37,048 bases of DNA from Patescibacteria group bacterium (GTDB lineage Bacteria > Patescibacteriota > Patescibacteriia > UBA9570 > JAHJKD01): NCBI GenBank assembly GCA_041660885.1, contig JBAZVM010000009.1, positions 1 through 37,048 of the forward strand, read 5' to 3'. The translations under genes and the position numbers were made by a program. Of this stretch, positions 9,748 to 26,800 are shown piece by piece. Each line of letters opens with the position of its first letter. Within the stretch, counting starts at the first letter, position 1. The notes beneath the pieces were generated by a model. It worked only from the letters and a program-made list of their open reading frames with translations, had not been told where the DNA came from and ran no database searches.

Positions 9748-12465
9748 ATGCCGAAACATGAGGTTAATTTTTATAATCTATCATTTAACGAAGTAATTAG
9801 CCGTTTTAAAACGGGCGATAACGGCCTAACTCTGGAAGAAGCTAAAAATAGGCTGAAAGAGCACGGCTTTAACAAATTGCCGGAAGAGAAAGGCGCCTCC
9901 AGCATAAAACTTTTTTTCGCGCAGTTTAAAAGCGTTTTAATTTATATTTTGTTGATTGCCGCGGTAATCAACTTTTTTTTGGTTTGCGAAGAAAGCAAAA
10001 GTTTGAATCTTTCCATATCCGACCAAGCGGATACCTATATAATTCTAATCACGGTTCTAATTAATATTATTGTCGGTTTCATACAAGAAAATAAAGCGCA
10101 AAAGTCTTTGCAGGCTTTGAAGAAAATAATTTCTTTAAGCGCCCGCATAATTCGCGGCGGAAAAGAATTCGTGATCAATGCGCAAGAATTGGTGCCCGGA
10201 GATGTAATGCTTATATCCGCCGGGGATAAAATTCCGGCCGATGTTCGGCTGACCGAAGTGGAAGATTTGGAAGCAAACGAATCTGCGCTTACCGGCGAAA
10301 GCGAACCGGTAAAGAAAACAACTGTAAAACTGGAAGGGGAATTGCCCTTGGGAGATAGGCTGAACATGGTTTTTACCGGAACCACCATAACCAAAGGCCA
10401 GGGAAGGGGTATTGTTATTACCACCGGAGAAAAAACCGAAATCGGCCGCATTGCCAAGCTTATCAAAGAAACAAAGGACGAAAGCACGCCGCTTCAGCAA
10501 AAGCTTAATAAATTTTCCAAGAGCATGGGAATAGTTGTTTTGGCCGTGGCCGCGGTTTTAATGATTATCGGTTTTCTGCAGGGAGATCCTTTCATTGAAA
10601 TATTCACGGTATCCGTGGCCGTGGCGGTTTCCGCTTTGCCCGAAGGGTTGGCCATTGGCGTAACCGTTATTTTAGCTTTGGGTATGCAGCGCATTTTGAA
10701 GCAAAAAGCTTTGGTGCGCAAATTGGTAGCCGCGGAAACTTTAGGGTCCACCACTTTCATTTGCACGGATAAAACCGGCACTCTAACCGAAGGTAAAATG
10801 CAGGTAACGGATTTAATCACTTGGGATCATGATTTTAACGTGAAAAAAACCGAAGATAAAAAATTGCGCAGCAAGGAAAACGAAGAAATGCTTTTTGCTT
10901 TGCACATCGGCTTGATGTGCAATGACGCGCGCATAGACAATATCGATGACGATATAGATGATTGGATAATCTCCGGCAATCTTACCGAACGAGCGCTGTT
11001 GCTGGCCGCCACCCAAGCCGGATTGCAATACAAAAAAGAACACTCATTGTATCACCGGCTGGATAGCATTCCCTTTGATTCGGAAATTAAATATATGGCG
11101 ACCCTGCATAAAATGGATGCCAAGCGCAATATAGTTTACTTTAAAGGCGCGCCGGAAAAAGTATTTAATAAATGCACGCATCTGCGCGTAGGCAACAAAG
11201 AAGTAAAATTCGATGAAGAAAAAAGAGAAAAGTTTTTAAATAAATTCACAACTTTAAGCAATAAAGGATTGCGCGTAATTGCCTTAGCTTATCGCCATAT
11301 CCCTGTAAAAAATAAACGTTTGGCAGATGTAAATTTAAACACGCTGGTTTTTGTGGGCTATGTGGGCATTAAAGACCCGCTAAGACCTACTTCTAAAGAA
11401 ACAGTGGAGGAATGCCATCAAGCGGGTATTAAAGTGGTAATGATCACCGGAGACCATAAATTAACAGCTTCGGCCATTGCCAAAGATTTGGGCTTGCCTT
11501 GCGCCGCAGAAAATATTTTAGAAGGGCAAGAGCTTGATAAAATGAGCGACGATATATTAAAGCAGCGTGTAGAAGAAGTATTTGTTTACGCGCGGGTAAG
11601 CCCGGAGCATAAACTGCGCATTGTGCAGGCTTTGCGCAAACGCGGAGAAGTGGTGGCTATGACCGGAGATGGCATTAATGATTCGCCGGCGCTTAAAGCC
11701 TCTGATATCGGTGTGGCCTTGGGTTCTGGCACGCAAGTAGCCAAAGAAACAGCGGATATGGTGATACTGGATGATAATTTCCGAAGCATTGTGGGCGCGG
11801 TGGAAGAAGGCCGAGGGATATTCGACAACATTAAAAAAACCGTGCTGTATTTAATATCCGATTGCTTTTCCGAAGTTGTTTTATTAACTGGGAGCATATT
11901 GATGGGTATGCCCCTACCTTTGGTAGCAGGCCAGATTTTATGGATAAATTTGGTAAATGATACTCTGCCTAACTTGGCATTAACTAAAGAGCCGAAAGAA
12001 CAGGAAATAATGTTTGAACCGCCCAGGGGCCGCAAAGCGGAAATATTAACCAAAGATATTAAAATACTTGTGGTTTTTGTCAGTTTGTTTTCCGGGTTAT
12101 GCGGATTGGGTTTATTTTATTTCTTTAATCAGTATTACGACAATGTCGTGTTAGCCAGATCAGTAACATTTGCCATGCTTGGATTGGATTCCCTTATTTG
12201 TGTTTTCAGCATGCGTTCTTTAAGAAAAAGCATTTTTCAAGGCAATTTGTTCAGCAACTTATACCTGATTGGGGCCGTAATTATCAGCTTTGCGTTCTTG
12301 GCTGCCGCATTTTATGTTCCTTTGTTGCAGCAAATATTAAAAACCGAGCCTCTACAATGGAGTCATTGGCTATTGGTGCTGGCCCTTTGTTTGGTGGAGA
12401 TGGGGTTGATAGAAGCATTGAAATTTATCTTTATGAGGGGTAGAATAAAGTTAATAAGCAAATAA
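9748..12465 (+). CDS. P2-type cation-transporting ATPase (Ca2+/Mg2+-ATPase-like)
   Basis: Motifs seen are TGES, DKTGTLT (the phospho-Asp site), PEGL in TM4, MITGDH, TGDGINDSPAL and NLVNDTLP in TM6. The N-terminal cation-ATPase domain reads LTLEEAKNRLKEHGFNKL. Confidence 0.93.
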   Translation: MPKHEVNFYNLSFNEVISRFKTGDNGLTLEEAKNRLKEHGFNKLPEEKGASSIKLFFAQFKSVLIYILLIAAVINFFLVCEESKSLNLSISDQADTYIILITVLINIIVGFIQENKAQKSLQALKKIISLSARIIRGGKEFVINAQELVPGDVMLISAGDKIPADVRLTEVEDLEANESALTGESEPVKKTTVKLEGELPLGDRLNMVFTGTTITKGQGRGIVITTGEKTEIGRIAKLIKETKDESTPLQQKLNKFSKSMGIVVLAVAAVLMIIGFLQGDPFIEIFTVSVAVAVSALPEGLAIGVTVILALGMQRILKQKALVRKLVAAETLGSTTFICTDKTGTLTEGKMQVTDLITWDHDFNVKKTEDKKLRSKENEEMLFALHIGLMCNDARIDNIDDDIDDWIISGNLTERALLLAATQAGLQYKKEHSLYHRLDSIPFDSEIKYMATLHKMDAKRNIVYFKGAPEKVFNKCTHLRVGNKEVKFDEEKREKFLNKFTTLSNKGLRVIALAYRHIPVKNKRLADVNLNTLVFVGYVGIKDPLRPTSKETVEECHQAGIKVVMITGDHKLTASAIAKDLGLPCAAENILEGQELDKMSDDILKQRVEEVFVYARVSPEHKLRIVQALRKRGEVVAMTGDGINDSPALKASDIGVALGSGTQVAKETADMVILDDNFRSIVGAVEEGRGIFDNIKKTVLYLISDCFSEVVLLTGSILMGMPLPLVAGQILWINLVNDTLPNLALTKEPKEQEIMFEPPRGRKAEILTKDIKILVVFVSLFSGLCGLGLFYFFNQYYDNVVLARSVTFAMLGLDSLICVFSMRSLRKSIFQGNLFSNLYLIGAVIISFAFLAAAFYVPLLQQILKTEPLQWSHWLLVLALCLVEMGLIEALKFIFMRGRIKLISK

Positions 12466-12470
12466 ACCAT

Positions 12471-13001
12471 ATGAAACAAGTATTAATGGTAATCGCCAAA
12501 CAAGGTTTTAAAGACATAGAATATTTTGAACCAAAGCAAATCTTGGAAGATAATGAAATAAGCGTGCACACCGCTTCGACCGAAATAGGCACTGCTACGG
12601 GCAGCGATGGAAAAACAACCAGTATTGATTTTACCGTGGCTGATTTTTTGGAAAAAGAAGAAAACATGGCTCAATACGAAGCGGTTATTTTTGTCGGCGG
12701 TGGCGGAATGGAACCGCTCACGGACGATGCCAATTTTCAAAAGCTGGCCATTAATTTTTTCACTGCTCATAAAATCGTAGCGGCCATTTGCGTGGCGCCT
12801 ATATTATTGGCCAAAGCCGGCTTGTTACGAGGAAGAGACGCCACAGTGTCTTCTAATCAAGAATACATAGATGCTATTGTTAACAATGGCGCGGAATATT
12901 TGAATCAAGATTTGGTTGTAGCTGATAATATCATTACCGCCAGCGGGCCAAAGGTGGCTTATAAGTTTGGCTTAACCATTATGGAAACCATAAATAAATA
13001 A
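12471..13001 (+). CDS. DJ-1/PfpI family protein
   Basis: 176 aa with GGGGME, the nucleophile-elbow motif AAICVAPILLAKAG, and ITASGP near the C-terminus. Confidence 0.85.
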   Translation: MKQVLMVIAKQGFKDIEYFEPKQILEDNEISVHTASTEIGTATGSDGKTTSIDFTVADFLEKEENMAQYEAVIFVGGGGMEPLTDDANFQKLAINFFTAHKIVAAICVAPILLAKAGLLRGRDATVSSNQEYIDAIVNNGAEYLNQDLVVADNIITASGPKVAYKFGLTIMETINK

Positions 13002-13002
13002 T

Positions 13003-13617
13003 ATGCATTTTAAAACAAAATTAGCCTTAGGATCAATTCTAGCCGTGGCTTTGGTAGCGGGGATATTAACTTTGCGCCAAAAATTTTATCCTTCTGCCAC
13101 TTCTATTTTAGATATTAACGCCACGAAAACCGCGGAAGAAGATTTCGATAAAAAAATGCTTACTATGTTAAAAAGAATGGATGTAGCTCTTGATACTAAT
13201 ACCAATGCTAACGGGAATGCAAACAGCAATGCCAATACTAATATTAACACCAGCCAAATCGTTGATAAAAAAGAAGTGCTGGCGGAAAAATTTTATTTGG
13301 TTTTATATCCTCAAGTACAGATAGACGCCGATTTAAATATAAACACGGAAAAGAAAATATCCACTGCTTCATTATCAACCAAGGACGAAAAAGATAAAGT
13401 GCTAGAATTCTATAAAGAGCAATTAACCGACCAAGCCAAAGAAATTGAAAGCGTAAACGAGCAATCAGACGACAAACTGGAAACATCTTTGATACTGTTT
13501 TCCGGCGAAGGCGGCGAAGGGGAGCTTAATGTAAAAATTTGGCGCTCCGGCGAGCAAACCAATATAGATTTATCCATCTCCGATAACTTTAAGGACCCGC
13601 GCTCTTCAGCTCTTTAA
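13003..13617 (+). CDS. membrane-anchored hypothetical protein with an Asn-rich linker
   Basis: It has an N-terminal signal-anchor (LALGSILAVALVAGILTL) and the linker TNTNANGNANSNANTNINT. It starts 1 nt after the DJ-1 stop. Its 3' end overlaps the mfd 3' end by 29 nt in convergent orientation. Confidence 0.65.
   Translation: MHFKTKLALGSILAVALVAGILTLRQKFYPSATSILDINATKTAEEDFDKKMLTMLKRMDVALDTNTNANGNANSNANTNINTSQIVDKKEVLAEKFYLVLYPQVQIDADLNINTEKKISTASLSTKDEKDKVLEFYKEQLTDQAKEIESVNEQSDDKLETSLILFSGEGGEGELNVKIWRSGEQTNIDLSISDNFKDPRSSAL
13195..13251 (+). repeat. Asn-rich low-complexity coding tract (TNTNANGNANSNANTNINT)
   Basis: Read directly from the translation as AAT/AAC-rich imperfect codon repeats. 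Confidence 0.7.
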
Positions 13618-15916
13618 TCGCGGTATTTAATAGTCTTAAATACAAATTCAAACCGATTTCTTCGGCTTGGCCTGATTGGGCTTTCCCTAAAATATTGCCC
13701 ACGCCTCTTAATTCCAAATCTTTCATGGCCAATTCCATGCCGCTGCCCAGGCCGCTGAATTCCGTTAAAGCTTTCAGTCTTTTTCTCGCCTCCATCGTTA
13801 ATTGTGTTTGTTCGTATAATAAATAGGCGTACGCCTCAACGTAGCTTCGGCCGATGCGTCCTCGTATTTGATGTAGTTGGGAAAGCCCGAAATTCGGCGC
13901 GTTATGCACTATTAAAGTGTTGGCGTTGGCGATATCCAGCCCATTTTCAATAATAGTAGAGCAGATTAAAATATCGGTTTTTCCTTCATCAAAATCGTGC
14001 ATTACCCCGGCTAATTGTTTCGGTTCCATCTGGCCGTGCGCCACGGCTATTCTGGCTTTGGGGAATAATTTTTGCAGTTTATGGAAAATAAAATTTATAG
14101 TCTCTACTTTATTATAGAGAAAATAAACCTGTCCTTTTCTATTTAATTCTTGCTCAACCGCTTGTTTAATAATTTGCTCCGACTCCTGCGCGATAATGGT
14201 TTTAATTTTTAAGCGGTGCGGGGGAGGAGTGCGTATAACGGAAATTTCTCGCAAACCGGAAAGCGCCAAGTTTAAAGTACGTGGAATGGGCGTGGCCGTG
14301 AGTGTTAATACATGCGGCGCGTGCTCGGATTTTATTTTTTTAAAAAATTCTTTATGCTTTACCCCGAATTTTTGTTCCTCATCCACGATTATTAAGCCTA
14401 ATTTGTTAAAAGCGATATCTTTGGAAAGCAAGCGGTGGGTGGCGATGATAATATCGGTATGACCGCTTTTTATTTTATTAACCGCTTCTTTTTGCTGCTT
14501 GCCGGATTTAAAGCGGGAAAGCAGCTCGATTGACACCCCGAATTTTTTTAAGCGGTCGCAAAAAGTATCGTAATGTTGCTGAACAAGAATAGTGGTAGGG
14601 CAGAGAATGGCTACCTGGTATCCGTTAAGCACGGCGCGGAAAGAAGCGCGCATCGCGATCTCGGTTTTGCCAAAACCAACATCCCCGCAGATCAGCCTAT
14701 CGGCCGGCTTTTCTTTGCCTAGATCGGCCAGCGTGTCTATCAGGGATTGTTCTTGATCCGGAGTAAGCGGATAGGGGAAAGAATCCCATAGCTCTTTTTC
14801 GCTTGATTGTTCTTTGAATATTGGAGCTTTTATCACTTCGCGCTGAGCGTAAATGTTAAGCAGGTCTTTGGCAATAACTTCGGTCTTCTTTTTTATTTTG
14901 TTGAGAATCTGTTCCCAGGAAGCATCGTCTAAACGATGCAGTTTCGGCTTTACCGAGCCGATATATGGTTCTAATCGGTTACCGCTTGTAAACGGCACAA
15001 AAAGTTTGTCGTTATGTGCGTATTGCAAGAAAAAATATTTTTCGGCTTTAATTTCTTTATACCCGGCGAATTGGGCAACGCCGTGATCAATATGCACCAC
15101 ATAATCTCCCGGTTGAAGATTATCCAAAAAATTTTGGTCTGCTTCTTTTTTTTCTTCAATCAGGGGCGCGCCAAAAATATTTTCGTCCGTTAAAAATATC
15201 GTGTTTTCTTTGGGCAAGATAAAGCTTTCCAATTCAATATCGCCCTTATCCTCCAGTATAGTTTTTCTTTGCGTGATTATCTTACTGATTTTATATGCTT
15301 GTTTGGTGAAAATTAAAATTTTTAAATATTTATTAAGATCATGATTTAATTCTTTAAAACGCATGTTATAAAATTTCGGGGAAACAAATTCCCCATGTAA
15401 ATCATCTTCCCGCATTAAGGCGCTGGAAGCGGGTATCTTTTGCGGATAAACATGAAGCTCTTTAAGATCTTTATTTTTTTTATTGCTTTCCAAAGAAAAA
15501 GAAAATATTTTTTGTATTTTATTTCCTTCAAATTGCACGCGCATGGGGTCGTTTAAAAAAATATCCAGCACATCTCCGCGCACGGAAAAAGTCTTTTCCT
15601 GGTTGGCCGTGGTGTTGCGCTCGTAAGCCAAAGCCACCAGCTTGGCCACAATATCGGACAAAGCCATTTCTTCACCCACAGCCAATTGCAAAGCAAGCGC
15701 CAGATATTCTTTATCGGTTATTTTATTTTCCGTATAGAATTTTTCCGAAACAATATTGTTAATGGGAAATAAAGGATTCCAAAACTGACAAAGGGATTTT
15801 AAAGATAAAACATCCCGTTCTTCCGCTGTTAAATAAAAAGCCAGCCTATTTTTGTAAAATAGGGGGGTGTTTGCTAGTTCATAGCTTATTTCAGTTAAAC
15901 TGCGCCATATAGACAC
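13589..15916 (-). CDS. mfd: transcription-repair coupling factor Mfd (short form, 775 aa)
   Basis: It has the CarD/RNAP-interacting motif GDYVVHIDHGVAQFAGY and SF2 motifs GDVGFGKTE, DEEQKFG and TATPIPRT. The TRG motif is QLHQIRGRIGRS. Confidence 0.9.
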   Translation of the reverse strand: MSIWRSLTEISYELANTPLFYKNRLAFYLTAEERDVLSLKSLCQFWNPLFPINNIVSEKFYTENKITDKEYLALALQLAVGEEMALSDIVAKLVALAYERNTTANQEKTFSVRGDVLDIFLNDPMRVQFEGNKIQKIFSFSLESNKKNKDLKELHVYPQKIPASSALMREDDLHGEFVSPKFYNMRFKELNHDLNKYLKILIFTKQAYKISKIITQRKTILEDKGDIELESFILPKENTIFLTDENIFGAPLIEEKKEADQNFLDNLQPGDYVVHIDHGVAQFAGYKEIKAEKYFFLQYAHNDKLFVPFTSGNRLEPYIGSVKPKLHRLDDASWEQILNKIKKKTEVIAKDLLNIYAQREVIKAPIFKEQSSEKELWDSFPYPLTPDQEQSLIDTLADLGKEKPADRLICGDVGFGKTEIAMRASFRAVLNGYQVAILCPTTILVQQHYDTFCDRLKKFGVSIELLSRFKSGKQQKEAVNKIKSGHTDIIIATHRLLSKDIAFNKLGLIIVDEEQKFGVKHKEFFKKIKSEHAPHVLTLTATPIPRTLNLALSGLREISVIRTPPPHRLKIKTIIAQESEQIIKQAVEQELNRKGQVYFLYNKVETINFIFHKLQKLFPKARIAVAHGQMEPKQLAGVMHDFDEGKTDILICSTIIENGLDIANANTLIVHNAPNFGLSQLHQIRGRIGRSYVEAYAYLLYEQTQLTMEARKRLKALTEFSGLGSGMELAMKDLELRGVGNILGKAQSGQAEEIGLNLYLRLLNTAIKELKSAGP

Positions 15917-15985
15917 GAGGGTTATTGTAATGAAATAAAGGGAAAATGTCTATATGTCAATAAAAAATAATCATGCTTTATATAG

Positions 15986-16014
15986 TTGACATTAAACATA
16001 TATATCTATATAAT
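15986..16014 (+). promoter_or_regulatory. consensus sigma70 promoter driving the island ORF
   Basis: TTGACA (15986-15991), exactly 17 nt, then TATAAT (16009-16014). Both hexamers match consensus perfectly. Confidence 0.55.
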
Positions 16015-16060
16015 CACGAATTCTGTAAATTTTGAATAGCTCTTTTTAGATTAGAATAGA

Positions 16061-16105
16061 GCCGTAGCTTTAAGCGTGTGAAATTCGCACTTTTAAAGCT
16101 GCGGC
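16061..16105 (+). promoter_or_regulatory. long 5'-leader hairpin
   Basis: GCCGTAGCTTTAA (16061-16073) pairs with TTAAAGCTGCGGC (16093-16105) over 13 bp including one G-U. The hairpin sits between the predicted TSS (~16021) and the start codon. Confidence 0.4.
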
Positions 16106-16138
16106 AACTACGCTGTGGCTACAATAAAGGCTATAGCG

Positions 16139-16615
16139 ATGACTATTGAGAAAAACATTATTCGTCGTCATGTGCTCATCATCCGCTCTCGAACGTCCCT
16201 GGAAATGCTGGACGCAACAGGGCGGAATCAGCACTTCCAGCCACAGGTAGTACTTAATATGCCCGTCGCTCGTAATGGCGAGATGGATGTAATTTTTTTC
16301 CACATCGGGCGTCGGCTCGCCGATGTTGAGCTGGCCAAGGAGTACGAGGATCGATACATTAAACCTCTCGATCCGTATACGTTACTCCAGATCAATATCG
16401 AGGATCCACAATTTGCCGATGATCACCCAAATGGAACAATTTGGAAAGATGAACGGGGTCGATGGTGTCATGCCGCGTTCGATGTGGCATGGAGCAATTG
16501 GGGAGAAATACCCCATCGACGAGTCCATGTTCTCGGGCCCGACATCTCCTGCGGCCACTGGTGGTCTGATCGCTGGGTATTCGCCGGTGTAGAAAAGAAG
16601 TTTTTTCCGGTCTAG
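16139..16615 (+). CDS. hypothetical protein, GC-enriched, Trp/His/Cys-containing C-terminal half
   Basis: The track ORF 16115..16615 starts at GTG. ATG 16139 (MTIEKNIIRRH...) is preferred. Hand G+C counts are 27/60 at 16141-16200 and 37/60 at 16501-16560. I recognise no domain. Notable segments are HPNGTIWKDERGRWCHAAFDVAWSNWGE and CGHWWSDRWVFAGV. Confidence 0.65.
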   Translation: MTIEKNIIRRHVLIIRSRTSLEMLDATGRNQHFQPQVVLNMPVARNGEMDVIFFHIGRRLADVELAKEYEDRYIKPLDPYTLLQINIEDPQFADDHPNGTIWKDERGRWCHAAFDVAWSNWGEIPHRRVHVLGPDISCGHWWSDRWVFAGVEKKFFPV

Positions 16616-16644
16616 GGACACAGAAGGGGGGTACCTAGGCTATG

Positions 16645-16693
16645 ACTCGTCTCGAATTTATCCCAAACAAACAGTGGATAATTCGAGACGGGT
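16645..16693. repeat. 14-bp inverted repeat (1 mismatch) with a 21-nt loop
   Basis: ACTCGTCTCGAATT (16645-16658) pairs with AATTCGAGACGGGT (16680-16693). The central 11 bp are perfect. Confidence 0.5.
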
Positions 16694-16725
16694 TAAGAGT
16701 AATTTAATAATGTGGCTTAAGAATC

Positions 16726-16754
16726 TTGACCGCAAATAAATAATCATTTAGTAT
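16726..16754 (+). promoter_or_regulatory. possible promoter for the DUF3800 gene
   Basis: TTGACC (16726-16731), 17 nt, then TAGTAT (16749-16754). Confidence 0.3.
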
Positions 16755-16764
16755 AAAAATATCG

Positions 16765-16790
16765 AAAAGGCGAGACACGCCTTTTTTTGT
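16765..16790 (+). terminator. intrinsic terminator or leader attenuator hairpin
   Basis: AAAAGGCG-AGACA-CGCCTTTTTTT forms a short GC stem extended by A-U pairs, followed by a run of 7 T. It ends 12 nt before ATG 16802. Confidence 0.5.
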
Positions 16791-16801
16791 TTTTATTTTT
16801 T

Positions 16802-17431
16802 ATGCTAATTTTTGTTGATGAATCCGGAGATACCGGCCGAAAACTAAATAAGGGTTCTAGCAGATACTTTATTATTGCTATTGTAATTTTTTCAGAATCG
16901 GAAGAAGCTTTAAATTGCGACAAGCGTATTAATCAGCTAAGACGAGAAATCGGAAAGCCGGATAATTTTGAATTTCATTTTACTCATAATTCGGAGACAG
17001 TCAGACAAAAATTTTTGCAAGCAATTCAGCCTTATCACTTTAATTATTTCAGCGTGGTCATTGATAAACATCCGAATAAATTATGGGGACCGGGTTTTAA
17101 AGACAAAGAGTCCTTTTATAAATATGCTTGCAATATGGTTTTTACCAATGCTTTATTTTATTTAGACGATGCTACCGCGGTTTTAGATAAGTCTGGTTCT
17201 CCTGATTTTCGAAATAGGTTGGCGAAATATTTACGTAAGCGTATAAATGAGCAAGGCACGGGAAAGATAAAGAAGCTGAAACAGCAGAGATCATCCGCGA
17301 ATAATTTATTACAGCTGGCGGATTATGTATCAGGAATTATCAATAGAAAAGTGCAAAATAAAAGAGGCTGGATGCAATATTACAAATATATATCGGATAA
17401 AGAGAATTGGGTGCAAATTTGGCCCAAATAA
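16802..17431 (+). CDS. DUF3800 family protein
   Basis: MLIFVDESGDTG at the N-terminus (the D-E-S-G motif) and NLLQLADYVSG near the C-terminus are the two signature blocks of DUF3800. The track start at 16787 lies inside the preceding T-run, so ATG 16802 is preferred. Confidence 0.8.
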   Translation: MLIFVDESGDTGRKLNKGSSRYFIIAIVIFSESEEALNCDKRINQLRREIGKPDNFEFHFTHNSETVRQKFLQAIQPYHFNYFSVVIDKHPNKLWGPGFKDKESFYKYACNMVFTNALFYLDDATAVLDKSGSPDFRNRLAKYLRKRINEQGTGKIKKLKQQRSSANNLLQLADYVSGIINRKVQNKRGWMQYYKYISDKENWVQIWPK

Positions 17432-17501
17432 AAAAATACCGCTTCTTACCCCCGAAGGGGACGCCCCGATGAACGGGACTATTTGAAGCGGTACCAATTC
17501 C
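17430..17501 (-). ncRNA. candidate ~70-nt three-way-junction small RNA (unknown class)
   Basis: The minus strand reads ...GGAAUUGG-UACCGCUUC-AAAUAGU-CCCG(UUCAU)CGGG-GCGU-CCCC(UUCG)GGGG-UAA-GAAGCGGUA-UUUUUUU. It has a 9-bp closing stem, two hairpins (one with a cUUCGg tetraloop) and a U7 tail. A promoter sits immediately upstream. Confidence 0.45.
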
Positions 17502-17507
17502 TTTCCA

Positions 17508-17535
17508 AATATAGCATAACTCTAAATACAGTCAA
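17508..17535 (-). promoter_or_regulatory. sigma70-like promoter for the minus-strand small RNA
   Basis: The minus strand reads TTGACT (17535..17530), 16 nt, then TATATT (17513..17508). Confidence 0.4.
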
Positions 17536-17564
17536 TTTTGTTTTCCACATATAGATCTTAACCC

Positions 17565-17592
17565 TTGACAAATAAAAAAACCCTGTTAAAAT
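17565..17592 (+). promoter_or_regulatory. sigma70 promoter with extended -10 for the plus-strand small RNA
   Basis: TTGACA (17565-17570), 16 nt, then TGtTAAAAT (TG at 17584-17585, hexamer at 17587-17592). Confidence 0.5.
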
Positions 17593-17598
17593 GGCCTA

Positions 17599-17745
17599 AT
17601 TGTGAAGAAAAGTAGCGTTTAGGGTGTTGCTGGTAAGCGCCAACAAGGGGACTACCCCTCCTGGTCCTCTTCAGTAGCGTTAAGGAGTCTGGGGATAACC
17701 TAGATCTCCGCTTATCAGTGACACTTTAGCCGCTACTTTTTTGTT
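17599..17745 (+). ncRNA. candidate ~145-nt structured RNA (unknown class)
   Basis: A perfect 10-bp closing helix pairs AAAAGUAGCG (17608-17617) with CGCUACUUUU (17731-17740), followed by UUGUUU. Internal hairpins are GGGG-ACUA-CCCC (17647-17658) and a 10-bp hairpin with one bulge and a GAUAA loop (17684-17709). AGTAGCGTT occurs twice (17611-17619 and 17673-17681), which allows alternative pairing with the 3' strand. Confidence 0.5.
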
Positions 17746-18284
17746 TAATTGAAACTATTCATTGTTTTGGCCAATCCTTGGGTAATGGCCATTTCCACGG
17801 CCTCATTGGCCGCGATAATGATATCTTTTAGATTTTTTTGCTCATCGACGGAAAAATTAGAAAGCACAAAATCAGCCGTGTCGGTTTTAGGGGTGTGGAT
17901 ATTTTTCACACCCAAACGGATATGCACAAAATCTTTAGTTCCCAGACATTCAATAATAGATTGCACGCCGTTATGGCCGGCGGAAGAGCCGGTGCCTTTT
18001 ACGCGCATAGAGCCGAAATTTAAATCTTTGTCATCATGAATTATGAAAATATTGGCCGGCTTAATCTTATAAAATTTCGCGATCTTAGCCACAGCCCTGC
18101 CCGACTCGTTCATGAAAGTTAAAGGTTTGGCAATAATAATATTATTTTCTTTGGAAATAGCCGATTCAAATTTTTTATTAATCTTAAAATCGCTGGCTAT
18201 TTGGTCTACCACCATAAAGCCGATATTGTGCCTGGTTTTTTCGTATTTTTTTCCGGGGTTACCCAGTCCCACAATAAGCTTCAT
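17745..18284 (-). CDS. pth: peptidyl-tRNA hydrolase
   Basis: MKLIVGLGNPGKKYEKTRHNIGFMVVD, GHNG and the rest of the 179-aa sequence are a typical Pth. Confidence 0.95.
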   Translation of the reverse strand: MKLIVGLGNPGKKYEKTRHNIGFMVVDQIASDFKINKKFESAISKENNIIIAKPLTFMNESGRAVAKIAKFYKIKPANIFIIHDDKDLNFGSMRVKGTGSSAGHNGVQSIIECLGTKDFVHIRLGVKNIHTPKTDTADFVLSNFSVDEQKNLKDIIIAANEAVEMAITQGLAKTMNSFN

Positions 18285-18285
18285 A

Positions 18286-19650
18286 CTATTTGCTTATAAA
18301 TATTTTAATAGGAATGCCTAAAAATTCATAGCGATCGCGTAAGGCTTTTTCAATTAATTTAGCGATTGCTTCGGGAAAATTTTTCGGAGTGGGGGTTTGC
18401 AAATGAAACACCGGCGGATTGGTTCTTTCTTGAGTTAACCTCTTTATAACTAAAGGTTTTTTTTCTTGGCCGAAAGTGACGGTTTGCCTTTGCCGCGGTT
18501 TATATTTTCTAAGAAGTTCTTCTATTATTTTATCCAGATCTTCTTGATCCGCTTGCAAATTGGCTTGCTTTTCTATTTCCAAAGTCAGGTCCAGCATTTT
18601 TTTTACGCGCAGTTTTTCTAAAGCAGAAACGAAAATCATAGGCACGTGGCGCGCAAAGGGGAGCTTGGCATCGAAGTATTTTACAAAATCATTAATAGTA
18701 TTCTCATCCTTTTCTTCTATCAAGTCCCACTTATTGACCACTAGAATTAAATTTTTACGTTCCTGAATGCAAAGATCCACCAAAGCTTGGTCTTGGCTGG
18801 TTATTCTTTCTTGAGATTCCAAAACCAAGGCCACTACGTTAGCCCGGCGGATGGTTTCTATGGTGGCGCGCACTCCTTCTTTTTCTATTTTACCCATCAT
18901 TTTATTCGGCCAATCACCCACGCGGCTTTTTCTCCGCAAACCCGCGGTGTCTACTAAAATAAATTGGCGGTCATTATATACAAATTCAAGATCATTGATA
19001 TCGCGCGTGGTATGCGGTAGGGGAGAAACCAGCACTTTTTCCTGGCCCATAATGGCATTGATCAAAGAAGATTTTCCCACATTGGGCCGGCCTACGATAG
19101 CCAAATGAATGGCATTTGCGTTCTTTTCTTTAATAGTGGCGGATGCGGGTAATTTATCGGTTATTAAATCCAATAATTCACCGGTTCTCGAACCATTGAT
19201 AGAGGAAAATTTCACCGTGTCAGTAAAATTTAATCTGGTAAAATCCGGATCAATGTCTTTCTCGTTTTTTTTATTATCAATTTTATTGATACCCAGTATT
19301 ACCGGTTTTTTTAATTTTTTAAGCCAAGCAGCCAATTCTTTGTCTTGCGGCATGATGGGGCTTCTGCCATCTACTATAAATAGAATCATATCCGCTTCTT
19401 CTATGGCAAGCTTTACCTGTTTTTGGATGCCGGAAGACAGTGCGTCTTTAGGGGCAGTGTCTAAGCCTCCTGTGTCCACCAACATAAAACTTTTCCCGTT
19501 CCAAGCGATTTCCGCGTAATTGCGGTCCCGCGTGGTGTTTTCCATAGGAGAAACAATGGCTTTTCTGGTTTCCGAAAGCCGGTTAAATAAAGTAGACTTG
19601 CCGGCATTAGTGCGGCCGACAATAGCAACAACAGGGCTGGTTTTTTTCAT
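18286..19650 (-). CDS. der: ribosome-associated GTPase Der (EngA)
   Basis: Two tandem G domains carry P-loops GRTNAGKST and GRPNVGKSS, each followed by DTGG/DTAG and NKxD motifs. A KH-like C-terminus follows. Confidence 0.95.
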   Translation of the reverse strand: MKKTSPVVAIVGRTNAGKSTLFNRLSETRKAIVSPMENTTRDRNYAEIAWNGKSFMLVDTGGLDTAPKDALSSGIQKQVKLAIEEADMILFIVDGRSPIMPQDKELAAWLKKLKKPVILGINKIDNKKNEKDIDPDFTRLNFTDTVKFSSINGSRTGELLDLITDKLPASATIKEKNANAIHLAIVGRPNVGKSSLINAIMGQEKVLVSPLPHTTRDINDLEFVYNDRQFILVDTAGLRRKSRVGDWPNKMMGKIEKEGVRATIETIRRANVVALVLESQERITSQDQALVDLCIQERKNLILVVNKWDLIEEKDENTINDFVKYFDAKLPFARHVPMIFVSALEKLRVKKMLDLTLEIEKQANLQADQEDLDKIIEELLRKYKPRQRQTVTFGQEKKPLVIKRLTQERTNPPVFHLQTPTPKNFPEAIAKLIEKALRDRYEFLGIPIKIFISK

Positions 19651-21179
19651 ATAGCCTTATCTTGCCCTAAAATGACGATAAAATCAACGCCTTCAATGTT
19701 TAAATTGGCGTTTGGGTATATAGTAGTGAAATTATCCGTGGCTGTTTCCGCGGATAGTTCTGTTTTTAATGATTCCAAAGTTTTAGGATTTTTTTCGGTT
19801 AAATCGTATATTAGCGTGGTTTCCGCGGGCATGGGAGCGTTTCCGATTTCCGAAACGATTAAATTAAGAGCATCAAGTTCTTTGGAGGTCGTATCCGCCA
19901 AGCCGACTACGCTAGTGCCGTTTAAAATAATTATGGCGGCTTTTTCCTCTTCGGCCGTGGCTTTTTCTTCCACTATCTCTTCTTTTTTTATATTGAAAAC
20001 GTTTTTAGCTATTTTTTTAATTTCCGAGAAATTATAATCTCCGGCTTTAGGCACTAAAACATATGCGCCGGTATCCGGAGCGATCATACCGACGAGCGGG
20101 CCTTCCACGCTATCATCTATGGTGGTGTTCGTGATCTCGCTATTATCAATTTCTTTAATCATCATGGCCAGCTTTGCCATTTCACCGAGTTCCAGATTAG
20201 TCCTTAAATGATCCCCAAGATCATTCATTAAATTGGTAATTTTTACGGGATTAGCCAAGGTGGAAGTGGAGAGCGCTCTTTTTTTAAACGCTTCCATGAT
20301 TTTTTGCTGGCGTTTGCTGCGCGCGAAGTCCGAACCTTCATTATAATCCGCTTTGGGATCGTTATAAGCCACTTTTCGAATGCGGGCAAAACGTAAAGCG
20401 GTTTCCCCGTTCATTTTTTGCATGCCTTTTTGGAATTTAAACACGCAATATGGTCCGTCTCCGTCATCCATATAATATGGCCCGCCATCGGTATCTTGGC
20501 AGGTGCCGCCGCAATCAGTGATGTGGTAATAGCCCGTAAATTTATTAGGAGCGTCCACTTCAATGCCTCCAACGTCATCGATTAATTTTATAAAACCGCC
20601 GAAATCCATGAGCACGTAATAATGCATTTTCAAGCCGGTTACTTCTTCCACTTTAGCCACGGATAAATCGATTCCTCCCAGTTCATAAGCGTAATTTATT
20701 TTTTTTCCTTCCCAATATTTTGATTTCGGGTCGCTATATATTTTTACCACTAAATCGCGTGGCAGGGAAAGAAGCGCCACTTGCTTGGTGGATGGTTTGA
20801 TGCTAGCGACCATTATTGTATCGGTCAGCGTGCCGCCGGCGTGATCTCCGCCGCCAATGCCCAAAAGAAGGACATTAATTCTATCTTTTTCTTCGCCTTT
20901 CAGCGGTTCTTTATTCTCCCGCACCATTAGCTCTAATTGTTTGTATAAGGATGTGGATTTATCCTGATCTATGATTTTATCCACATTTTTGGAAAAAAGC
21001 TGGTAGCAAGCGCCTATTCCCAAGACTATAATTAGAATAACGGAAAGAAGTATCCATTTTTTAAATGGTTTTTTAGTTTTCTTTTCTTCACTATTAATCC
21101 CTGTTTCTTCAGTCTTTATTTCTATCTCCCCGGTGTTTTCTTCTTTAAGCACTTCCAGCTCGATTTTCGTTTTTTTCAT
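19647..21179 (-). CDS. LytR-CpsA-Psr (LCP) family protein with a C-terminal LytR_C-like domain
   Basis: It has an N-terminal TM anchor. The LCP core reads RINVLLLGIGGGDHAGGTLTDTIMVASI...ALLSLPRDL. The C-terminal segment is AAIIILNGTSVVGLA. It overlaps the der start by 4 nt. Confidence 0.85.
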   Translation of the reverse strand: MKKTKIELEVLKEENTGEIEIKTEETGINSEEKKTKKPFKKWILLSVILIIVLGIGACYQLFSKNVDKIIDQDKSTSLYKQLELMVRENKEPLKGEEKDRINVLLLGIGGGDHAGGTLTDTIMVASIKPSTKQVALLSLPRDLVVKIYSDPKSKYWEGKKINYAYELGGIDLSVAKVEEVTGLKMHYYVLMDFGGFIKLIDDVGGIEVDAPNKFTGYYHITDCGGTCQDTDGGPYYMDDGDGPYCVFKFQKGMQKMNGETALRFARIRKVAYNDPKADYNEGSDFARSKRQQKIMEAFKKRALSTSTLANPVKITNLMNDLGDHLRTNLELGEMAKLAMMIKEIDNSEITNTTIDDSVEGPLVGMIAPDTGAYVLVPKAGDYNFSEIKKIAKNVFNIKKEEIVEEKATAEEEKAAIIILNGTSVVGLADTTSKELDALNLIVSEIGNAPMPAETTLIYDLTEKNPKTLESLKTELSAETATDNFTTIYPNANLNIEGVDFIVILGQDKAI

Positions 21180-21294
21180 GTGGTTTATTATAAGTGATTA
21201 ACCTTGTTCGGTCAATTGAACTTTTGTTTTCATTTGCTATTTTTCGATAATATTATTATAATATAGAAAAGTTTAAACTTTAATTTATTTGTTT

Positions 21295-22647
21295 ATGCCA
21301 AGAAAAAAAGGAATGACCCCGGTGAAAGCCCCTGCTAAAAGCCGTTTGAACCCGCCTCAGCTTTTAAAAGGCATGAAGGATATACTTCCGGAAGAACAGA
21401 AGTATTGGAATTACTTAGTGGAAAAAGTAAAGAACATTGCCGAAGCTTACGGCTTTGAGCGTATTGATACTCCGATCTTGGAGCCGACTTCTTTATTCAT
21501 CCGTTCCATTGGTAAAAATACGGATATCGTGGAAAAAGAAATGTTTTCTTTCGTGGACCAAGGAGGAGACCATGTTTGCGCCAGACCGGAAATTACCGCT
21601 TCTATTGTGCGCGCTTATAACGAACACGGCATGATTAACCGTCCACAACCCGTGAAATTATATTCTATTGGCCCGGTTTTCCGCCACGATAAACCCCAAG
21701 CCGGCCGCTACCGCCAATTCAATCAATACAGCTTTGAAGTTATCGGCGAAGCTTCTTCCGTGATCGACGCGGAATTGATTTCTCTGCAATACCATCTTTT
21801 TAAAGATTTAGGATTGGATTCTTCCATACACATTAATAGCGTCGGCTGTAAAGAATGCCGGCCGAATTATGCCCACTTATTGCAAGAATATTACCGTTCC
21901 AGGCGCAAAAATCTTTGCGATAATTGTAAACGCCGTTACAGCAAGAATCCCATGCGTTTATTGGATTGCAAAGAAAAAGTCTGCAATGAAATGGTGGAAG
22001 ACGCTCCGCAAATGGTAGATAATTTATGCGAAGATTGCCGCGCGCATTTTGTAAAAGTATTGGAGCACCTTGATGCCGCGGAAATTCCCTATACTTTAGA
22101 CGCGCGCATTGTGCGCGGTTTGGACTATTATTCCCGCACCGCTTTTGAATTTTTCCCCATAGCCAAAGAAGCGGAAAAAACAGAAAGGCAATCGGCTATA
22201 TCCGCGGGTGGAAGATACGACGGCTTGGTGCAATTATTGGGCGGACGTGAAGGTGTGCCCGCATGCGGTTTTGCCGGCGGCATAGAAAGAATAATTCTTT
22301 CCATAAAGGATAGCGCCATAAGTATTCCGGAACCAATCAACCCTGATGTATTTTTAGCCCAAATAGGGGATAGCGCGCGCAAGAAATCCTTGAAATTATT
22401 GGAAGATTTGCGCAGCGCGGGTTTACGCGTAAGAGCCAACTTATCTAAAAGTTCGCTTTCCAACCAGTTAGCCACTGCTGCTAAACTTAATGTTAAATTT
22501 ACATTGATTTTAGGGCAAAAAGAAGTCATCGACAGCACTATATTAATTCGCGATATGTCTTCCGGTTCACAGGAAATCATAGATGTGAAAAAAATCGTAA
22601 GCGAGATCAATAAAAGACTGCTTAAGCTCAAGCAAGAAAATGGATAA
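21295..22647 (+). CDS. hisS: histidine--tRNA ligase
   Basis: Class II aaRS motifs are present, including RPEITASIVR, GPVFRHDKPQAGRYRQFNQ and GGRYDGL. A C-terminal anticodon-binding domain follows. The track start is TTG 21289, and ATG 21295 is preferred. Confidence 0.95.
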   Translation: MPRKKGMTPVKAPAKSRLNPPQLLKGMKDILPEEQKYWNYLVEKVKNIAEAYGFERIDTPILEPTSLFIRSIGKNTDIVEKEMFSFVDQGGDHVCARPEITASIVRAYNEHGMINRPQPVKLYSIGPVFRHDKPQAGRYRQFNQYSFEVIGEASSVIDAELISLQYHLFKDLGLDSSIHINSVGCKECRPNYAHLLQEYYRSRRKNLCDNCKRRYSKNPMRLLDCKEKVCNEMVEDAPQMVDNLCEDCRAHFVKVLEHLDAAEIPYTLDARIVRGLDYYSRTAFEFFPIAKEAEKTERQSAISAGGRYDGLVQLLGGREGVPACGFAGGIERIILSIKDSAISIPEPINPDVFLAQIGDSARKKSLKLLEDLRSAGLRVRANLSKSSLSNQLATAAKLNVKFTLILGQKEVIDSTILIRDMSSGSQEIIDVKKIVSEINKRLLKLKQENG

Positions 22648-23367: not shown

Positions 23368-23805
23368 ATGAGTCTTTACAATCAAATCAATGACGATTTA
23401 AAAAAGGCGATGAAAGCGCAAGACGCTTTTTTATTGGGCACTTTGCGCATGGTTTATTCTTCCATGAAGTATAAAGCCATTGATAAAAAAGCCGACCTGA
23501 CTGACGACGACTGCCAGAAAATATTGGCTTCCGAAGCTAAAAAGAGAAAAGACTCTATCGCCGCTTTTGAAAAAGGCAACCGGCCGGAATTGGCGGAAAA
23601 AGAAAAAAAAGAATTGGAAATAATTAAAAAATATTTGCCAAAACAGCTTTCCGAAGAAGAATTAAGAGCCATTATCGTTAAAGTGGTGGCTGCCAACGCG
23701 GGTTTGGGCTTTGGCCCGATGATGGGCAAAGTAATGGCTCAGGCCAAAGGCAAAGCTGATGGCGCTTTGGTACAAAAAATATTAAAAGAAGAAACGGATA
23801 AATGA
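23368..23805 (+). CDS. yqeY: GatB/YqeY domain protein
   Basis: Family-typical segments are INDDLKKAMKA.D...L.TLRM, EAKKRKDSIAAFEKGNRPELAEKEKKELEIIKKYLPKQLSEEEL and MGKVMAQAKGKADG. Confidence 0.85.
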   Translation: MSLYNQINDDLKKAMKAQDAFLLGTLRMVYSSMKYKAIDKKADLTDDDCQKILASEAKKRKDSIAAFEKGNRPELAEKEKKELEIIKKYLPKQLSEEELRAIIVKVVAANAGLGFGPMMGKVMAQAKGKADGALVQKILKEETDK

Positions 23806-26800
23806 AAAACAAAAAAAATCTCGTCAAAAAAATGCTTTTCGGCTTAGGCTTGATCAGTAGTCTTTTTTTCGTTGTTAACAGCGTTTTTGCTCAAGTAAAA
23901 ACTGATTACGGTATTAACTTGGGTGATGCTTCCCCTGAAGAATTAGCCGTGAGCATTATTAATTGGGGATTAGGCATTCTGGCGCTTATCGCCGTCATCA
24001 TTATACTGTATGGCGGTTTTGTTTGGATGCTTTCCGGCGGTAATGAAGAAAAAGTGGAAAAAGCTAAAAAAATATTAAGAAACGGCATTATCGGCTTAGT
24101 AATTATTCTCGCGGCATGGGGCATTGCTACTTATATAATCAACAGGCTTTTAGACGCCACCAATGCCAATAACGGCACAAGCGGTGGCCCCAGCTACACT
24201 GATAATATACATGGTAAGGGCAATCCTTTTTACGTGGATCATTCTAATCCCGCGGACGAGGAGATTAATGTTACTTTATGTCATTTAATTGCCGTTACTT
24301 TTTCTTTGCCTGTTGATAAAACAACTATTAATGATGCGAATTTTAAAGTTACAGTGGCAAACGGCTCTAATCCGGATGGGGATTCTTGCGTTTCATCCTC
24401 CGATTGCGCGTCTGGCTTGTGCGAAATGGGCGATAGTATAGGTACATGTATAGGCGACCAAGTAAAAGGCACGTTCGCGTTTACCGAAGATCCGCCATAC
24501 GCGGCTGTTTGGTACCCAACTGCAGATTATATTGCTTCCACTACTTATCACGTGGAACTTTCTACGGAAATAGTAGGCCTTGATGAAATCACCACAGATA
24601 CTTATAAACTGGAAATGGGAGATACCAAGCGCGTGTTTGAATTCACCACGGGCACGGAATCCGACACCACGCCGCCGAAAATAGATGTGGTTTCCGTTAA
24701 ACCTTTCCCAGAGGATAACGCCACGGAAGTTTGCCGCAACACTCCCATACAAGTCAGCTTTTCCGAAAGTTTGGATCCCGCTTCCGTGAAAGATGAAAAT
24801 ATCTGGCTTTATAAATATACCGAAGGCGTTACTCCGAACGACCCGGGGAATGAATTATCCAGCGTGCGCTTTACCAGCATTGGCGGGCAAGCGGACGATA
24901 CTTTGATTACCAGCCCGCAAAGCGTGTTGGATTCGTACGCTGATTACGGTATAAGTTTATATAGCGGCGTTTACGACGCGGCCATAACTTCGGTGCGCGA
25001 AAATTATTTGGGTGCTGTTCGCGATACTTGCGGCAATCCTATTAGCGGAGATTACGACGACGATATGGAAGGCAGCCCCGCGGACGATTTCATGGAAGCG
25101 ACTAGCGCCGTGACCGCGCAAAATTCCGCTTATTCTTATCAGTGGACTTTCAAAACCGGCGAACAAACCGATTGTTCTCCGCAAATCGATTCGCTTACAT
25201 ACACTCAGCCCGATTACTATAGCGAAGACCTTTCTCCCTTTAATAACGAAAAACCCGATATAGATGGAGACGGCAAACCAGATGTAATGGCTGGCAGCGA
25301 AGATACCGACCAAGTTACTATTACGGGAAAATATCTCTATCCATTTTACGATGTAGGATTTGATTATAATATCTCTGGCGCTAATTTAAATTGTTTTGAC
25401 AGCGGTCACAATGTAAATTCGTCGTGCTTTATAACCAACAGCGGCAGCAGCGCCATTACTTTGCGCACTCCGGTCGCCGTGCGTAGCGGCGGAACTGTTT
25501 CCGTGGAAAATGAGTTTGGCACAGATAGTTCCGCTGATCAATTTTATGTTTCTTCGCCTTATATCAGCAGCTTGTCGCCGCAACAGGGGGCAGTAGGCCA
25601 ATTTGTAACCATAAAAGGCGCGCATTTCATTAATGATAAAAAAGGCAAAGTGTATTTTGACGGCCAGGAAGTGGAAACCCCTTGCGCCGATGGCTGGGAT
25701 GATGATCAAATCGTAGTGAAGATTCCGGATAGTTTTGGCGATTCGTTTTCCATAGGAGCTTTACTATCTGTTCAGGTGGTTACTGTGGGCCCAGATGGTG
25801 TTTGGAATAGTGGAGCGTATGGTACCGACGATAAATACAGCAATAAAAGAGGATTTACTTTAAAAGACGGCAGTCCCGGCCCGGGATTATGCTCCGTGGA
25901 TCCTTCTTGCTCCAATGACGGCACCGAAGACGTGGCCTTGAACGGTATTAATTTTGGCACGACCAGCGAATCCGTCTATTTTATTAACTCGTCCGATGTC
26001 GGGCAAACGGCTTCAATAAATTCATGGACGGATACGGACATTCTTACCGATCAATCTCCGGTTACCGCGCAAAATAATTACGATGCGTTTGTATCCATAA
26101 AAGATGCGGACGGAGAATCTATTTTTAGCAACGGTATGTCTTATGACATTCCTTGCGGTGAAGCACCTAGCGTGTTTACTTACGGCAGCTGCGATTTAAC
26201 CAGCGATGTTTATTATTTGCCGAATCCGCGGCCGAGTACGGAAGAAGCCTGCATTAACGGTGTAGTGTATTTTGCTTTTACCGCTGGCATGGATGACGCT
26301 TCCGTTAAAAATAATGTAAAAGTTTATAATTACGGCACCGGAGATTGGAACGCGAATTTGGCCACTGCTTCGGAAGTAGCTGGATCTATAGACAGCGAAG
26401 GAAAATTAAGTAAAATTTATTTAGGAGGCAGCGCTGATGAAGATTCTGATTATGAATTATTTTCTTTCACGCCACCGTCATCGCAACAGTTTGCTAGCGA
26501 CACTTGGTATAAGGTTACCATTCCCGTATCGGTTGTAAGTGATACCGGCATTGCCATAACCGAACCGTACGAATGGCATTTTAAAGTACGCAGTGGAACG
26601 GAAAATTGCAGCGTGGACGAAGTGGATGTACGCCCGTCTTTTACCAGGGCCACCACTTATGTTTCTACGGCCGCTTGTCCGGAAGAAAATTATACTTACG
26701 ATAGTAAGAATTATAACTACAAAGCCCAACCGTATAACGATGGTTGTTTCGCCTTAAGAAACGATTTTAGCTGGCATTGGGCTATAGATAATAATACCAA

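Follow-up and report, generated by a model that had tools for sequence, protein, structure and literature searches.

A DUF3800-IX-type RNA cassette and an unrelated small RNA beside pth in a Patescibacteria bacterium

The DNA analysed here, a stretch of 37,048 nucleotides from a Patescibacteria group bacterium (contig JBAZVM010000009.1, hereafter the window), carries two short RNA genes that face away from each other between a gene for a DUF3800 protein and pth, the gene for peptidyl-tRNA hydrolase. The gene order in this region is mfd (minus strand), an open reading frame (ORF) of 158 or 166 codons (plus), the DUF3800 gene (plus), the two RNAs, pth, der and lytR (all minus) and hisS. According to what we consider the best overall explanation (probability about 0.8), the leftward RNA and the DUF3800 gene form a cassette of the DUF3800-IX family, whereas the rightward RNA is an unrelated small RNA (sRNA) resident at this site, and the two were joined by insertion. 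The region is identical in a second assembly of the same organism.

Two divergent RNA genes between DUF3800 and pth

An initial annotation of this DNA, made from the letters alone, had described two near-consensus promoters facing away from each other. A consensus scan bears this out, with 10 of 12 matches for the leftward promoter and 11 of 12 for the rightward one, each with a TG; the two -35 boxes are 29 nt apart. The region contains 7 promoter-like sites against 4.5 +/- 2.3 in shuffled sequences, a count that is not significant on its own. Since the number of sites does not exceed chance, the case for both promoters rests on their quality (they score best among the promoter-like sites of the region) and chiefly on their conservation.

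Each unit possesses its own sigma-70-type promoter and a stem followed by a U-tract, as read from the sequence, and these features are conserved in homologues. The strands and ends are those of the initial annotation, which had taken both units for structured, terminator-ended RNAs, and the fold energies and conservation agree with it. No tRNA was detected in the region by ARAGORN, and Rfam gave no relevant match there, neither at the gathering score nor at E <= 10. From the sequence comparisons given below, we conclude that both units are genuine and structured non-coding RNA genes, predicted to be transcribed independently and unrelated to each other.

The leftward RNA and the DUF3800 cassette

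The leftward RNA is predicted to fold into a three-way junction (minimum free energy (MFE) -33.1 kcal/mol, z = -4.2), with a preference for the minus strand (-32.4 kcal/mol against -25.0 for the plus strand). The junction, the cUUCGg hairpin and the U7 tract over the DUF3800 stop codon are as first described; the closing stem has 11 pairs (9 Watson-Crick and 2 G-U). Conservation was followed in 80 genomic loci encoding the same 209-aa DUF3800 subfamily, sampled from Patescibacteria, Elusimicrobia, Nitrospirota, Omnitrophota, Chloroflexota, Acidobacteriota and other phyla. By blastn, 14 of these loci have the RNA just past the stop codon of DUF3800, and a 15-copy alignment contained clear compensatory changes. 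The covariance model built from this alignment (R1) matches 79 of the 80 loci as well as the window, always on the opposite strand and at the 3' end of the gene, and in the sole locus without a match the sequence ends at the gene. The co-occurrence with DUF3800 across genomes, which the initial annotation had proposed to check, is thus observed. Moreover, R1 matches only the 3 DUF3800-bearing loci among 91 pth loci.

In the 80-sequence alignment, 98.1% of the paired cells hold standard pairs, against 34-52% with slid partners, and 17 of the 21 pairs have changed on both sides. Unpaired nucleotides are conserved as well, namely GGAA, the UUYAU loop, GCGU and UA-G. A sigma-70-like promoter with at least 9 of 12 matches precedes the RNA in 68 of 79 loci, and the end of the -10 box lies 6-7 nt from the conserved GGAA in 69 of 79. 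Given this fixed distance, transcription would start at about GGAAUUG (window position 17501-17502). At the other end, the U-tract mostly begins 1-6 nt from the DUF3800 stop codon.

Eleven unrelated RNA motifs that adjoin DUF3800 genes have been described, without known function (Weinberg et al. 2017, PMC5737381). One of them, DUF3800-IX (RF02968), was called by the Rfam model in 12 of the 13 homologous loci tested, at the exact coordinates of R1 and with 42-65 bits. The gathering score is 36.8 bits, a threshold that is the operational cut-off of one model and not a biological feature. The RF02968 consensus, an 11-bp P1 around two hairpins followed by a U tail, agrees with the fold in the window and with the covariation of the family. 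The model likewise misses two other loci of the window's subgroup, L007 and L016. The members tested of this subgroup (the window and these two loci) read CAAAUAGUCCCG...GGGGUAAG where RF02968 has CGAACUGUCGCC...GGGcUAG, and they have in common a sequence variant in which CAAAUAGUCC... replaces CGAACUGUCG.... R1, which was derived from window-like copies, finds all RF02968-positive loci again at unchanged coordinates (L027, for instance, with 80.2 bits), and the partner DUF3800 proteins are 49-74% identical across the homologous loci. We therefore regard the leftward RNA as a divergent member of DUF3800-IX that fails the cut-off of one model, and not as the RNA of unknown class that it was first taken to be.

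With DUF3800-IX the leftward RNA shares the 11-bp closing helix, the two hairpins, the U-tail, the adjoining DUF3800 gene and the nucleotides GU...GCGU and UA-G, which are conserved. New in the present analysis are the promoter of the RNA, the GGAAUUG tail conserved at its 5' end and the constant convergent arrangement. The motifs DUF3800-I to XI, drum and skipping-rope are comparable in being structured, often terminator-ended and paired with DUF3800-type genes, but the other DUF3800-associated RNAs resemble IX in neither sequence nor structure. The geometry differs too: it is fixed for DUF3800-IX in our loci, whereas for DUF3800-I, drum and skipping-rope RNAs both sides and both strands of the partner gene are reported (PMC5737381).

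The DUF3800 protein belongs to a tight subfamily of 209 aa, for which 961 homologues were retrieved, the best 120 of the 961 being 56-74% identical. Its AlphaFold2 model (pLDDT 91.6) has as best PDB match the RNase HII 1EKE (E 1e-4, TM 0.57), and such an RNase HII-like or RNase H2-like fold is in agreement with published remarks on DUF3800 (PMC7736814, PMC10910872). N-terminal D6, E7 and D10 and further acidic residues are invariant in the homologues. PADLOC gave a match to PDC-M04A (6e-9) and a weak one to DUF3800_VII (E 0.0015). The sequence upstream of the DUF3800 start is not conserved; often a -10 box is found 9-15 nt before the ATG, with no Shine-Dalgarno sequence. Beyond the promoter of the leftward RNA, unrelated genes are present in the different loci. 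As neither flank is conserved, the conserved unit measures about 0.8 kb. DUF3800 and the IX RNA thus form a compact cassette of this size, made up of a short promoter, the ORF and, convergent with it, the RNA gene under a separate promoter. This cassette is found in unrelated genomic contexts in many phyla. Only 1 of 2.9 million viral contigs carries the DUF3800 gene, and that contig also has the RNA.

Some further features were noted near copies of the cassette. In the window, a promoter-like TTGACC...TAGTAT (within 16727-16801) is followed, right before the DUF3800 ATG, by a terminator-like hairpin (GGCGAGACACGCC and a T-run, 16768-16790). This hairpin, which could be either the terminator of the upstream ORF or a DUF3800 attenuator, is absent from the other loci, and no Shine-Dalgarno sequence accompanies it. 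In L007 (Ca. Paceibacter), the IX RNA gene is followed (4897-5010) by an almost perfect hairpin of about 105 nt, which has a UUCG loop and A/U-tract flanks; another structured stretch lies ahead of it (the whole has z -7.45). This hairpin was considered and dropped, being a plain 105-nt hairpin without convincing homology that resembles the rod of the rightward RNA only at its ends (UUAGCCGCU...UUUU). Highly structured stretches also lie just past the IX RNA gene in L054 (964-1052) and L077 (4791-4881), with weak, sub-threshold Rfam matches to sau-5971 and Clostridiales-2 that are probably due to chance.

The resident RNA and the insertion beside it

The rightward RNA, of about 148 nt, is predicted to form a rod tipped by a three-way junction (MFE -71.8 kcal/mol, z = -8.25), and the plus strand is preferred over the minus strand (-70.6 against -49.9 kcal/mol). 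The 10-bp closing helix, the U-tract at the pth stop and the two hairpins reported initially are all present: a perfect basal helix is followed by U6-G-U3 abutting the pth stop codon (17745-17747), and the two hairpins are apical. It had also been stated that neither unit contains a plausible ORF. A GTG ORF of 17 codons (17625-17678) does exist inside the rightward unit, but its frame is not kept, with a 1-nt deletion in relative L165 and a stop after 7 codons in relative L170. The unit was also considered as a miniature inverted-repeat transposable element (MITE) or other repeat, and this was rejected since it is single-copy in the window.

The rightward RNA is absent from the 80 DUF3800 loci, both by blastn and with its own covariance model (R2, built from six sequences, 0 matches). 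Phage and plasmid DNA collections gave chance matches only, and neither blastn nor nhmmer found homologues in 160 loci. A search with the pth protein yielded closer relatives, at 82%, 64%, 61%, 60% and 56% identity; the earlier metagenome scan for pth comprised only loci of <= 55% identity, in which covariance models later found members. On the contigs of the relatives, the order lytR-der-pth-mfd-hyp-DJ-1-ATPase is kept, without DUF3800. The pth-mfd spacer, of 203-294 nt in loci L164-L169, holds in the syntenic relatives a homologue of the rightward RNA, opposite pth and with a promoter of the TTGACA...TG-TAAAAT type. This promoter is kept in L164, L165, L166, L169 and L170 and in distant members. 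In L170 mfd is not the neighbour, yet the RNA adjoins pth and overlaps its 3' end.

R2 scores the close relatives at 135-164 bits, and it finds weaker members in ten distant metagenome pth loci, all opposite pth; antisense scores are much lower, in the window 36.9 bits against 144.8 in sense. A second model, R3, from which the window and its closest relatives were left out, matches the window (84.4 bits, E 4e-20) with no match on the opposite strand, and adds four further loci. Taken together, R2 and R3 place the RNA in about 14 of 80 distant pth loci, always opposite pth. In an alignment of nine sequences, 91.4% of the paired cells are indeed paired, against 36-48% when slid; compensatory changes affect 31 of the 43 pairs, and none of the observed measures is reached in any of 500 shuffles. 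With 16 distinct sequences, 91.8% are paired and double changes occur in 36 of the 43 pairs. Covariation and conservation in relatives, which the initial annotation had named as the test of its proposal, are thus found for both units.

In the plan of the family, the promoter is followed by the P1 rod (25-32 bp), P2 (short, 2-4 bp), an internal loop, hairpins A and B and, in many members, a U-tract. P2 co-varies, GGC/GCC with GAC/GUC. The internal loop is purine-rich, with GAAA opposite AGUA in most members and CAAC in the window. The loop of hairpin A includes CCCUCCU in all members, and is followed by an A-rich linker and then by the variable hairpin B. Eleven other loci (nine members and two near-duplicates) have no match to any Rfam family at E <= 1, and a match to a housekeeping RNA, which the initial annotation had named as a refutation, was found neither there nor in the region itself. 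No described Patescibacteria sRNA of this kind was found in the literature. Judging by Rfam 15 and the literature consulted, the rightward RNA is apparently an undescribed, lineage-specific sRNA family. The initial statement that neither unit belongs to a recognisable RNA family thus holds for the rightward RNA, but not for the leftward one.

Two details vary within this family. Beside P2, most members have GAAA opposite AGUA, which may be a loop E/sarcin-ricin-like internal loop; the window and L164 have CAAC/CAAA, and L094, L108 and L129 have UUA/AUA. In L166 (5541-5565) and L169 (3541-3565), both on the minus strand, the RNA ends in an additional short terminator hairpin (GCACAC...GAGUGC-U7). 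It shares sequence with the 3' strand of P1, and the two helices would be mutually exclusive.

The coordinates of the features are given in Table 1.

Table 1. Features of the region, in window coordinates.
Feature	Position	Strand	Evidence
mfd, transcription-repair coupling factor, ancestral neighbour of the resident RNA	13589..15916	-	Pfam matches; synteny in L164-L169
Inserted DNA between mfd and the resident RNA promoter (158/166-aa ORF, DUF3800, IX RNA)	15950..17540	.	Flank alignments; boundaries approximate
DUF3800 gene, 209 aa, predicted RNase HII-like fold	16802..17431	+	Pfam PF12686, E 4e-16; AlphaFold2 model
DUF3800-IX-type small RNA (leftward)	17430..17502	-	R1 96.2 bits; covariation (80 sequences); RF02968-like architecture
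Leftward RNA, U7, overlapping the DUF3800 stop codon TAA (17429-17431)	17436-17430	-
Leftward RNA, P3 hairpin, loop UUCG (cUUCGg)	17460-17449	-
Leftward RNA, P2 hairpin, loop UUCAU	17479-17463	-
Leftward RNA, P1	17495-17485 with 17445-17435	-
Leftward RNA, 5' tail GGAAUUG	17501-17495	-
Leftward RNA promoter, TTGACT-16-TG-TATATT	17508..17535	-	Consensus scan, 10/12; kept in homologous loci
Rightward RNA promoter, TTGACA-16-TG-TAAAAT	17565..17592	+	Consensus scan, 11/12; kept in homologous loci
Resident small RNA convergent with pth (rightward)	17599..17746	+	Folding, relatives, covariation; R3 84.4 bits
Rightward RNA, P1 rod	17612-17638 with 17710-17736	+
Rightward RNA, 2-bp P2	17639-40 with 17677-78	+
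Rightward RNA, hairpin A, loop CCCCUCC at 17655-17661	17645-17671	+
Rightward RNA, junction AGUAGCG	17673-17679	+
Rightward RNA, hairpin B, loop GAUAA	17684-17709	+
Rightward RNA, U-tract	from 17737	+
pth, peptidyl-tRNA hydrolase, convergent with the rightward RNA	17745..18284	-	Pfam PF01195, E 3.5e-64

The two RNA genes are neighbours only because the cassette, together with one unrelated ORF, inserted between the promoter of the resident RNA and mfd. The extra ORF has a GC content of 50.5%, against 34.8% for DUF3800 and 41% for the window, and it was probably acquired in an event separate from that of the cassette. It spans 16115-16615 (166 aa; 158 aa from the probable start, ATG 16139), has no match in Pfam, NCBIfam, PHROGs, PADLOC or phage records, and is not present in the 80 other DUF3800 loci.

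Several observations concern the inserted segment and its borders. A perfect consensus promoter, TTGACA-17-TATAAT (about 15979-16008), and a leader of about 100 nt precede the 166-aa ORF, and the leader (15979-16110 region) contains a strong compound hairpin at about 16060-16106. Just past this ORF lies a hairpin without a U-tract whose 14-nt arms are 93% complementary (16645-16693). An imperfect inverted repeat of 30 nt, 73% complementary, brackets the inserted segment (15938-15967 and 17537-17566). Its right arm overlaps sequence kept in relatives (TCCACA...), and the repeat may be due to chance, a recombination scar or terminal repeats. In L164, the closest relative, two extra small perfect hairpins, CCCCCAATAAATTGGGGG and CCCCGAATTTATTCGGGG, which look like a small repeat element, lie inserted between mfd and the sRNA promoter (5735-5790, minus strand).

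Proposed roles and alternative explanations

The linkage to DUF3800 wherever the flank is present, the conserved unpaired nucleotides, the dedicated promoter and the nuclease fold of the partner suggest that it is the folded form of the IX RNA that is recognised, the DUF3800 protein being the simplest candidate for this. The RNA would then be the dedicated partner of this RNase HII-like protein, which it may either restrain by binding or license. We give even odds to such an RNA-protein partnership. An analogy may be drawn with retron type VII, or with toxin-antitoxin-like defence modules that pair a nucleic acid with an effector. Retron type VII combines a reverse transcriptase, msr/msd and a DUF3800 effector (PMC7736814). 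It is alike in that a structured nucleic acid accompanies an RNase H2-like protein of the DUF3800 type, but the window has no reverse transcriptase or msr/msd architecture, and the RNA has its own promoter and terminator.

The fixed convergent overlap would also permit antisense control of the DUF3800 mRNA, and the two roles are compatible. That the IX RNA is mainly a cis-encoded antisense regulator we consider rather unlikely. In that case, the DUF3800 mRNA, lacking a terminator of its own, would read through the RNA gene and be paired and destabilised, similar to what is seen in type I toxin-antitoxin systems with convergent genes (txpA/RatA, bsrG/SR4), where a small RNA overlaps the 3' end of its partner, though that partner encodes a small membrane peptide and not, as here, a predicted nuclease of 209 aa. 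The convergent 3'-overlap geometry (80 of 80 cases), the stop-codon distances of mostly 1-6 nt and the U-tract on the strand of the RNA only, with nothing terminator-like after the ORF on the plus strand, all speak for it. However, a conserved fold is not required for pure antisense pairing, whereas here three helices co-vary and nucleotides outside the helices are conserved too. The placement of DUF3800-I, drum and skipping-rope RNAs on either side and strand of their partners (PMC5737381) argues against it as well. A bolder version of the RNA-protein partnership, which we regard as unlikely, is that the cassette is a minimal RNA-gated or RNA-guided nuclease, the IX RNA being the stoichiometric cofactor of an RNA:DNA-hybrid enzyme, and, separately, that the rightward RNA founds a family of sRNAs mimicking the anti-Shine-Dalgarno sequence; the cassette would in that case represent a novel type of mobile module, of two parts and either defensive or selfish.

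The resident RNA exposes its invariant C-rich loop on a scaffold of high stability, which points to base pairing in trans or to the binding of a protein. With its CCCUCCU, the loop could pair with AGGAGGG, and it is similar to the anti-Shine-Dalgarno tail of 16S rRNA. Tentatively, the RNA may act in trans through this loop, with a small number of purine-rich sites in mRNAs or a protein with affinity for C-rich RNA as its target; its constant position beside pth may be a matter of synteny only. RsaE/RoxS and the streptococcal csRNAs are regulatory sRNAs with C-rich loops. The rightward RNA is similar to them as a stand-alone gene with its own promoter and terminator and an invariant C-rich, anti-Shine-Dalgarno-like loop. 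It has no homology to them, however, and differs in its closing rod of 27-32 bp, its three-way junction and a host whose genes mostly lack Shine-Dalgarno sequences.

Other explanations of the rightward element fare less well. It might be a highly divergent housekeeping RNA, such as 6S or SRP RNA, that Rfam missed as it missed the leftward RNA; the rod-like shape and the size are about right. This is very unlikely, as 12 members have no match at E <= 1 to 10 to models that include tRNA, tmRNA, SRP, 6S and RNase P, and the RNA occurs in only about 14 of 80 distant pth loci. SRP helix 8 has a GNRA loop and an AGCA motif, both lacking here, and a three-way junction stands in place of the central bubble of 6S RNA. 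We consider it highly improbable that the element is no RNA gene but only a 3' structure belonging to pth or a long terminator for both directions. The rod does abut or overlap the pth stop codon, and in the window and L164 it is flanked by an A-tract and a U-tract. However, a near-consensus promoter is kept upstream in close and distant members, the loop and junction nucleotides CCCUCCU and AGUAGC are invariant, R2 shows the strong strand asymmetry reported above, and the pth strand has no U-tract in L081, L096 and L166.

The duplicated 9-mer AGTAGCGTT of the rightward RNA, at 17611 and 17673, is real, and in the window either copy is able to pair with GCUAC at the 3' end, which had been read as a switch between mutually exclusive helices. 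The 5' copy, AGUAGCGUU, is the 5' strand of P1, where the columns co-vary with the 3' strand (GUAGCG/CGCUAC, AUAGUG/CACUAU and AUAAUGCC/GGCAUUAU, with UUAGUGCC also among the 5' variants), and the second copy is the nearly invariant junction. For this reason the duplication and the alternative helix occur only in the window, in L164 and, by way of a wobble pair, in L165; the helix shrinks to 4 bp in L166 and 3 bp in L081 while P1 goes on co-varying, and a conformational switch is hardly credible. Least probable of all, to the point that we set it aside, is the earlier view that both RNAs belong to one DUF3800-associated, retron-like system. The adjacency of the RNAs in the window and the long inverted repeats of the rightward unit had suggested it. 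However, R2 has no match in the DUF3800 loci while the rightward RNA sits next to pth in relatives without DUF3800, and R1 matches DUF3800-bearing loci only. Furthermore, no reverse transcriptase was found among ten proteins (9748 to 22647) scanned against Pfam; its absence had been remarked initially and speaks against the likeness to msr/msd RNA.

Some points weigh against the explanation that we favour, an IX-family cassette inserted beside a resident sRNA, and against the roles proposed for the two RNAs. The leftward copy of the window has no RF02968 match, even at E <= 10 on a 106-nt stretch, so that the arguments for its membership are transitive homology, an architecture in common and partner genes that are orthologous. 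The alignments derived from covariance models are biased towards the modelled structure, and the transcript ends of both RNAs are read from promoters and U-tracts. In the literature consulted, no experiment assigns a function to any DUF3800-associated RNA. As to the C-rich loop, AGGAGGGG-like sites are not enriched in the window and no target of the CCCUCCU loop stands out. A Shine-Dalgarno-like motif lies within 25 nt upstream of the start in only 3-4 of the 26 predicted window genes, and the organism seems to use such sequences rarely.

The role of the eleven RNAs paired with DUF3800 genes has been a standing question since 2017, and DUF3800 proteins are now also found in retron type VII, Cas12a2/a3 and Cas13 loci and in candidate defence systems. 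The cassette defines a very small testable unit: within about 0.8 kb it encodes an RNase HII-like protein of 209 aa and an RNA of about 72 nt, whose linkage and geometry are fixed in every one of the 80 loci where the flank is present. A whole subgroup of DUF3800-IX RNA is shown to escape the Rfam model. Patescibacteria, in which very few regulatory RNAs are known, gain an sRNA family supported by covariation and with a clearly presented loop. Should neither RNA have an unusual function, the finding would be an ordinary gain in annotation.

Finally, two ORFs outside the inserted segment were noted. A 204-aa ORF kept beside mfd in relatives (13003-13617) belongs to no Pfam family, and its weak PADLOC match to 'Cas9' (E 0.008) is probably spurious. 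A very large ORF of 2491 aa spans 23802-31277.

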